A DNA stretch of 64,000 nt from Eledone cirrhosa (taxonomy: Eukaryota): NCBI GenBank assembly GCA_964016885.1, contig OZ024743.1, forward strand, positions 305,722,001 to 305,786,000. The letters run 5' to 3'. The position numbers and the translations under genes are program-made. Within the stretch, counting starts at the first letter, position 1. Each line of letters opens with the position of its first letter. Positions 34,286 to 35,593 of the stretch are shown piece after piece. Under the pieces are notes generated by a model, which saw only the letters and a list, made by a program, of their open reading frames with translations, had not been told where the DNA came from and made no database searches.

Positions 34286-34491
34286 ATATAAGTATGTATG
34301 TATACGTACATACATATATGTATACATATATATATATATATACAGGTACACATACATATATGCACGTATCAGTTTAGCGGACGCTTATTATAACGCCGCT
34401 TTGTTCGTTTGTAAACAAACTGAACAGCCTGATTTATGCCATACAGTGTTAAGGCAACCACGTCACCTTTTTGTTCAACACTGACACAGGA

Positions 34492-34534
34492 ACGATGTAC
34501 TAGTTTCAAGCTTGTTAGCTATCATCAGCACCGT
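34492..34534 (-). ncRNA. Minimal type I hammerhead ribozyme (460-bp family, inverted copy)
   Basis: Reverse complement of 34972-35014 with one loop difference. Confidence 0.85.
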
Positions 34535-34971
34535 ATATCCTTCTGCCAGATAGTTGAACGAAAAAAAAAAAAAATGTGACGTGGTTGCCTTAACACTGTA
34601 TGGCATAAATCAGGCTGTTCAGTTTGTTTACAAACGAACAAAGCGGCGTTATTATAAGCGTCCGCTAAACTGACACGTGCATATATGTATGTGTACCTGT
34701 ATATATATATATATATATATGTATATATATATGCATGCTACTGTACGTCTGTATACATATATGTATGTACGTATACATACATACTTACATTTAAGTAAGT
34801 GCCGTACTAAGAGTGAGAAATGAAATTTCGTTTTCATTTTATTTCAATTTATCGTTTTCGGTATGCCTGACCGACTTAACTCACTCGATATGCAAATTAG
34901 GCTACTCAGCCGTTAATTTTCATAAGGAAAGTATATACTTTCGAACGTTCAACTATCTGGCAGAAGGGTAT

Positions 34972-35014
34972 ACGGTGCTGATGATAGCTAGCAAGCTTGA
35001 AACTAGTACATCGT
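34972..35014 (+). ncRNA. Minimal type I hammerhead ribozyme (460-bp family)
   Basis: acggtg-CTGATGA-tagct-agca-agctt-GAAAC-ta-GTA-catcgt. Confidence 0.85.
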
Positions 35015-35593
35015 TCCTGTGTCGGTGTTGAACAAAAAGGTGACGTGGTTGCCTTAACACTGTATAGCATAAATCAGGCTGTTCAGTTTGTTTACAAACG
35101 AACAAAGCGGCGTTATAATAAGCGTCCGCTAAACTGATACGTGCATATATGTATGTGTACCTGTATATATATATATATATGTATATATATATGCATGCTA
35201 CTGTACGTCTGTATACATATATGTATGTACGTATACATACATACTTACATTTAAGTAAGTGCCGTACTAAGAGTGAAAAATGAAATTTCGTTTTCATTTT
35301 ATTTCAACTTGTATATAAATAGGTTTATATATATATATATATATATATATATATATATATATATATATAAACAATTAAGTCAAAAGTGTACATCTACATA
35401 TATATACGGAAATATTAGTATGCATATAAATACACACATGTATACATATGTACACGTACTGAGTTTTTCACTGGACACTTTACTGTGAGTGTCCAGCTAG
35501 TCTGTATGTAACCAAACAGACAAACCGGGTTTTAGAGTCATACGGGTTTTCAAGGAAACACATTTCCTCTATTCTCCAGAGAGCCAGACAGGA

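Follow-up and report, generated by a model that had tools for sequence, protein, structure and literature searches.

The genome of Eledone cirrhosa carries, on contig OZ024743.1, a 460-bp repeat (family A) with a hammerhead motif beside a 471-bp repeat (family B) with a related motif, and the locus raises the question of what kind of element the A repeat is, what inserted it and whether the two neighbours act together. What mobilises animal retrozymes is itself debated, Penelope-like elements (PLEs) having been proposed from shared features (2020) and then from co-occurrence and pLTR homology (2026 preprint). Our analysis of the window (the whole 64,000-nucleotide stretch that holds the locus) and of the genome leads us to regard the A repeat, with good confidence, as a likely non-autonomous retrozyme that bears a type I hammerhead motif, has ends of the Penelope type and was copied and placed in (TA)n by proteins of an autonomous PLE; its anatomy, copy number, ends and covariation were established directly.

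A single insertion of the non-coding unit, made up of an inverted arm, a partial unit and a full unit, spans window positions 34289–35310 and is bracketed by (TA)n tracts on both sides. The features of the locus (33740–37408) are these:

33740–34288, no strand: left target flank, a (TA)n tract in which ATAAATAGGTTT units are scattered
34289–34560, minus strand: inverted arm without tail, matching unit positions about 97–398
34489–34540, minus strand: type I hammerhead motif of the inverted copy, with a predicted cut site at 34498/34497
34553–34574, plus strand: inversion junction, GTTGAAC common to both arms, then an A-run
34575–34849, plus strand: direct unit, 5′-truncated, without ribozyme and with tail, 96% to the full unit
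34850–35309, plus strand: full 460-bp unit (family A1), by self-comparison
34890–34897, plus strand: ATGCAAAT octamer, a candidate promoter element or stem
34966–35017, plus strand: type I hammerhead motif, predicted cut after 35008
35062–35069, plus strand: 5′ strand of a predicted long-range 8-bp helix, with a private mismatch in this copy and intact at 34598–34605
35248–35310, plus strand: tail between two fixed ends, with the helix 3′ strand at 35260–35267 and a hairpin at 35278–35299
35311–35367, no strand: right flank, GTATATAAATAGGTT and (TA)n
35368–37408, no strand: separate insertion of the 471-bp family (B1), consisting of an inverted arm without tail and of tailed direct units in tandem

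The ATAAATAGGTTT unit resumes at 35311–35325, to the right of the A element, which therefore sits within an older tract. The 460-bp unit proposed in the initial annotation is present in full at 34850–35309 and the repeat family is real, but the locus itself holds just one full and two partial units, with one ribozyme per strand. At the inversion junction the arms share seven nucleotides (GTTGAAC), after which comes an A-run expanded to 14 from the 5 of the unit; an inverted pair of a PLE family elsewhere in the window (39165–39277) likewise shows an A-run where its arms meet. An assembly fold-back artefact was ruled out, as the arms differ by 1–2% and the ends are fixed and asymmetric, and the Rfam miRNA matches (in one case the 150 listed of 306) were set aside as artefacts of (TA)n and inverted repeats. 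The A locus in the window is probably inert, for each strand has a single ribozyme, private substitutions have accumulated, and in a read-through transcript the ribozyme would be masked by the inverted arm. Two of the neighbouring B copies have damaged cores, at 35600–35602 (GACAC for GAAAC) and 36166–36171 (ATTAGT for ACTAGT).

The hammerhead motif was found at all of the positions claimed for it. On the plus strand it runs from ACGGTG (34972–34977) through CTGATGA (34978–34984), TAGCT-AGCA-AGCTT (34985–34998) and GAAA-CTAG-T (34999–35007) to the cleavage triplet GTA (35006–35008) and CATCGT (35009–35014), followed by TCCTGT; in the inverted copy the core lies at 34528–34522 and the 3′ strand of stem I at 34492–34497, and the loop is AACA. 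The layout of 34966–35017 comprises a distal GGG/TCC, a TAT bulge, a 6-bp stem I (ACGGTG/CATCGT), the core, a 4-bp stem II (AGCT/AGCT) over a U.U, a palindromic ACTAGT stem III and a GUA site, and is that of the canonical metazoan type I form as described in PMC4209133 (helix I of 6 bp, helix II of 4 bp, short palindromic helix III). Motif and covariation together display the intact core, helices I–III and loop/bulge contact elements of a type I hammerhead. The best hammerhead match in Rfam, HH9, was to the inverted copy only and scored 17.6 bits (E 0.2) against a gathering score of 52, and the motif is therefore assigned by its anatomy and covariation.

The statement that the stems of A and B differ and still pair stands for stem I, but in A the first pair of stem II is a U.U and not the usual G-C; this foot pair is G-C in B, and U.U or C.A in most A types. 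The lowest-energy predicted fold of the isolated A motif is not the active one, and the basal U.U and 1-bp stem III would predict weak monomer activity. Among the axolotl motifs, HHR_Amex1 has a 1-bp palindromic helix III and HHR_Amex2 a U.U at the base of helix II (PMC7229834), whereas family A unites both weak features in one motif. The double hammerhead is described as a remedy for unstable monomers with a 1-bp stem III. In this topology the strand with the cut site crosses to the core of the partner, and stems I and III are both intermolecular; from it we infer an intermolecular stem I for the A and B sequences also.

Families A and B share about 60% identity outside the ribozyme too. Homology was significant upstream (z 7.0) and downstream (z 6.1) of the ribozyme (0/500 shuffles each), in the ribozyme itself (z 9.0) and in the tail (z 2.6, 2/500 shuffles), with no significant A/B homology in the microsatellite-rich part (34/500 shuffles). 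The core, the stem III palindrome and the distal GGG/TCC are identical in both, as the initial annotation had noted for core and ACTAGT, and its proposal of two diverged relatives with compensatory stem changes is borne out by the homology beyond the core, the invariance of the core and the five pairs that change on both sides. Subfamilies A1, A2 and A3 are 78–92% alike, B variants 90–97%, and A and B 58–62% outside the microsatellite; a tree of nine monomers split A from B with full support.

Covariation was scored on 14 hand-picked representative motifs, with damaged copies and odd unrelated cores left out. In this set 91.9% of cells were paired, compared with 78.0% after shuffling, a level that none of 500 shuffles reached, and slid controls gave 34–51%; stem I paired in 100% of cells. 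Seven of the 15 pairs change on both sides, a count matched by 64 of 500 shuffles. Five of these changes stem from the single A/B split (the chance of all five pairing is about 0.007), and further events were a G.U to U.G, U-A or A-U in A2 and an A-U to U-A in B2. The covariation thus appears strong, though not many-fold independent, consisting of the A/B split and two or three smaller events. A core that stays invariant over about 40% divergence while the stems compensate requires selection on RNA structure. A segment about 55 nt past the cut site can also pair with the start of the tail in an 8-bp helix (97% of cells paired, three pairs changing on both sides), a partly circular test since the helix was both picked and scored on one alignment; the tail hairpin is likewise kept. 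Folded as circular monomers, both were predicted to be far more stable than 40 shuffles (A z −6.4, B z −11.3).

Collecting homologues across the 3.0-Gb genome, as the initial annotation had proposed, returned 10,911 exact A1, 9,383 exact B-type and 1,245 exact A3-type ribozyme patterns, each with a control of 0. The wider pattern CTGANGA-N12-16-GAAACTAGT had 40,520 matches and its reversed control 6, so the hammerhead core is not a product of chance. DNA searches yielded 3,036 candidates for A (460 bp) and 2,251 for B (471 bp), and the best 40 scored of each were 97–99% identical and spread over many contigs. Since the internal (TA)n varies, A copies elsewhere measure about 453–547 bp. Up to seven A units occur in tandem in the loci examined, and 31 units in a B-type array. 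These numbers, with the non-coding tandem structure and the type I motif, agree with the class first suggested for the repeat, the animal non-LTR retrozymes. Within one insertion, tandem units diverge by 1.8% and inverted ones by 1.6%, compared with 4.1% between loci, as repeated copying of one template would produce, a pattern in which a circle and a homogeneous linear multimer look alike. A search with octamer-block variants gave 142 matches, A or B variants by the look of the matched letters, and eight odd cores containing ACTAGT proved unrelated to A or B and without a stem I. Contigs of the A element with the same subfamily variants were present in three sequencing runs of unknown type (X9, X10, X11), which have no bearing on expression. 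The 31-unit B-type array (L099 and L100, G000:C1:5738327-5752443) has one inverted copy, and its variants come back roughly every four units, which hints at multimeric templates or later unequal exchange.

A mis-spaced search pattern brought up a third family (L207, G000:C9:37435500-37444500, also L208–L219, L221 and L222), with a 310-bp unit, a type I hammerhead with a stem II U.U, near-identical tandem arrays of at least 22 units and an inverted arm, which resembles A and B around the ribozyme only. Its stem III palindrome is ACGCGT, changed from ACTAGT and still palindromic, which supports a dimeric action within families; the retained architecture, this palindrome and a tail of about 30 nt are as a dimer mechanism would predict. 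A recurrent short element (window 10920–10990, minus strand; also L017, L021, L042, L049 and L207) has a hammerhead with an extended stem III and a stem II of the TTTCT/AGAAT type, as in the 310-bp family.

Insertion ends fall on two fixed sites, one behind the tail and one 60–70 nt before that, and both lead into (TA)n. At 34 A loci we counted 23 tailed, 24 tail-less and 9 other or partial ends, and at 22 B loci 13 tailed, 18 tail-less and 4 other; in the end parse, a few anchors in L009 and L017 were false matches in microsatellite. Where an inverted insertion had exactly two scorable ends, there was one of each kind (9/9 in A, 11/11 in B), and the long arm was carried by either kind. Non-internal ends entered (TA)n in 47 of 56 cases for A and 31 of 35 for B, within which target-site duplications are unreadable. 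The tail measures 60–72 nt in A and B; the 310-bp family has the same two-end pattern with a tail of about 27–34 nt, as judged from L207, the sole locus read at both ends.

PLEs are described as leaving an inverted truncated copy, a one-sided tail of 30–40 bp and a bias towards microsatellites (PMC8557442). A PLE protein studied in vitro cut and extended both strands of AT-rich DNA and started at two internal RNA sites, the tail being the stretch between them, and this sole PLE so studied inserted without need of ribozyme cleavage (PMC11167929). The ends of A and B are this Penelope-like tail signature, and the A element has the marks of PLE mobilisation, an inverted 5′-truncated copy with a tail at one end and an AT-rich or microsatellite target. 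The distal block that the initial annotation described as shared between the families is indeed shared, but its identity had been missed: because the two-site ends match the PLE descriptions, it is a Penelope-type tail between two fixed ends.

We envisage, from the genomic ends and the predicted ribozyme, that tandem loci would be transcribed, possibly from an internal promoter, and that the palindromic ACUAGU would let neighbouring ribozymes of the same family form a double hammerhead. Cleavage after GUA would set free a unit-length RNA, which a host ligase may circularise. A PLE RT/GIY-YIG protein would then nick both strands of (TA)n and prime cDNA at two fixed internal RNA sites flanking the tail; one cDNA would cross unit boundaries and give the tandem copies, the other the inverted arm, and the two would be joined at a short shared sequence.

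Neither an ORF of at least 120 aa inside the A element nor, in the window or the loci examined, an RT plus GIY-YIG ORF continuous with the repeat was found. Of the 132 unit starts, a full tail precedes 114, and an inversion, a partial tail or (TA)n the remaining 18. The genome has about 10,600 GIY-YIG candidates, and several PLE ORFs lie in the window, one of five window ORFs having a sub-threshold GIY-YIG match in Pfam. No PLE end homologous to A or B was present in 50 GIY-YIG loci (30 short, 20 long) of these candidates, and the PLE 3′ ends read by eye had no homology to A or B; most PLE ends read also enter (TA)n. Copies of A or B type near three of the 50 loci were separate insertions, and the PLE ORFs downstream of A arrays (L102, L106, L104, L089) were discarded as 5′ pLTR links, (TA)n or other repeats intervening without a shared linker.

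The absence of an A/B-homologous PLE end in the 50 loci counts against a PLE-copied retrozyme, as do the Rfam score below cut-off, a tail longer than the usual 30–40 bp, the weak monomer activity predicted from the U.U and the 1-bp stem III, the inactive lowest-energy fold of the isolated motif, the dispensability of ribozyme cleavage in the PLE studied in vitro and the report that eight of nine Xenopus retrozyme dimers did not cleave (bioRxiv 10.64898/2026.07.22.740005). The units could instead be pLTRs of an autonomous Penelope-like element, left as 5′-truncated stumps with no independent non-autonomous family: PLEs show the same tail and inversion, other families in the window are such stumps (32133–34094 against the 3′ end of the ORF at 1694–3091) and retrozymes are derived from pLTRs in the same preprint. 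We consider this improbable: none of the 132 unit starts enters shared foreign sequence (in a sample of a few hundred of 40,000 copies, in which a rare master could be missed), arrays reach 31 units, and close PLE ORFs (the four named above and that at L147) are set apart by (TA)n or other repeats. Spread as DNA, whether satellite, MITE-like or Helitron-like, with the hammerhead a passive relic, appears very unlikely; the inverted arms do look like terminal repeats and unequal exchange could make the higher-order variant patterns of the long arrays (L099, L100), but the arms vary in length and inner junctions, their outer ends are asymmetric, and the core has stayed the same through about 40% divergence, over which the stems compensate.

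The shared ACTAGT had also suggested that A and B might cleave each other as hetero-dimers. Cooperation of this kind, which would make the adjacency of the families functional, could draw on the identical stem III palindrome, distal GGG/TCC and core, and a plus-strand read-through here would span one A and three B motifs; the inverted arm of B, however, stands between the A and B motifs, and a B-type copy lies within 1.5 kb of only one of 28 other A loci (L015). In a nearest-neighbour model without tertiary contacts, the double hammerheads were predicted at −21.2 kcal/mol for A/A, −16.8 for B/B, −13.7 for A1/A2 and −3.0 for A/B, the cross-pairing keeping four of six stem I pairs per core and being about 16 kcal/mol worse than the homodimers, so the shared palindrome would not license A–B cleavage. 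Functional cooperation is thus a most doubtful reading, and the adjacency is best explained by co-targeting, as separate insertions into a (TA)n-rich tract.

The A repeat resembles the animal non-LTR retrozymes of PMC7229834. These are described as AT-rich repeats in tandem that encode no protein, carry canonical type I hammerheads, number tens of thousands of copies in more than one family, have a highly self-paired predicted circle and co-exist with PLEs. The A repeat differs in unit size (460–470 bp in A and B, 170–400 nt for the retrozyme RNAs), and activity and circRNA, demonstrated there, are predictions for A and B; inverted arm, tail and microsatellite target had no matches in the main text of that paper. 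The preprint in which retrozymes are non-autonomous PLE derivatives (bioRxiv 10.64898/2026.07.22.740005) reaches the same conclusion on origin and mobilisation, and A and B fall within its size range of 51–972 bp. Its evidence, as presented there, is co-occurrence and pLTR homology in Xenopus, whereas ours is the insertion signature, with no homologous pLTR found; the word 'tail' does not occur in its main text. EN+ PLEs are likewise described with partial tandems, an inverted 5′-truncated copy, a one-sided tail, an AT-rich or microsatellite target and a hammerhead in the repeat (PMC8557442, PMC11167929, PMC4209133), but A and B have no ORF, a canonical and not a minimal hammerhead, and a tail of 60–72 nt in place of the usual 30–40 bp. 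From Chlamydomonas, non-autonomous PLEs that form head-to-tail copies are already known (MRC1), canonical hammerheads being absent from most of that clade. Newt satellite 2, likened by description and not by sequence, is also a tandem repeat whose type I hammerhead depends on a dimer, while plant LTR retrozymes have type III hammerheads in LTRs and a 4-bp TSD, unlike the type I motif and (TA)n ends of A.

Neither the retrozyme class nor dimeric type I hammerheads nor the presence of several families in one genome is new, and our finding adds evidence, not a new kind of system. A description of tail-plus-inversion ends of retrozymes was not found in the open main texts searched, nor by word counts in the two key papers. 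In thousands of young copies, both ends of families A and B bear the tail-and-inversion signature of PLEs, and their covariation indicates RNA structure at the presumed start sites, which makes the PLE question testable by the existing in vitro PLE assay. A bolder reading, which we offer tentatively as somewhat less than an even chance, is that A and B live as circular-RNA parasites and that their genomic ends mark, base by base, the two places where a PLE RT starts on a protein-free RNA, that the covarying long-range helix and the tail hairpin would form a portable recognition structure without sequence likeness to the helper end, and that family-specific stems I and III would keep the dimeric ribozymes private. 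If true, it would be direct mechanistic proof of PLEs mobilising retrozymes and define a minimal RNA signal for PLE-driven insertion.

The ATGCAAAT octamer is retained in 130 of 140 scored copies from four subfamilies, while its predicted pairing partner varies, and is a lead only, as a candidate internal promoter element or stem. The promoter of newt satellite 2 includes an octamer. According to a citation in PMC2220036, this promoter is internal, of the snRNA type and used by Pol II.

Several other elements of the window carry hammerhead-like motifs or PLE sequence, and the PLE families here are putatively Hydra-like and Neptune-like. A canonical type I hammerhead (20705–20795, minus strand; Rfam Hammerhead_1, 31.7 bits, E 6e-4) lies some 2 kb downstream of a pair of PLE-like RT/GIY-YIG ORFs (22715–24747). 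One PLE terminal-repeat family has a hammerhead-like motif with a long stem II (32133–34094, 229–370, 3253–3470, 40003–40274); its copy at 32133–34094 matches the 3′ end of the ORF at 1694–3091 and forms a large inverted pair, the difference between the two arms being a tail of about 20 nt. Another, presumably Neptune-like, has a CTGACGA-stem-GAAA motif (38742–39696, 9510–10818, 29952–31344, 13884–14929). At 2410–3054 a 51-bp unit is repeated 12.7 times in an open frame that is unbroken with a region of PLE endonuclease type (1694–3091, minus strand), and at 44843–45889 a 1-kb near-perfect inverted repeat (98%) contains a retroelement-like coding fragment between (ACAT)n flanks. Elsewhere in the genome, the 3′ regions of L143, L149, L154 and L146 show several PLE families that end with atypical hammerhead-like motifs without CUGA, in which a palindromic ACCGGT is kept.
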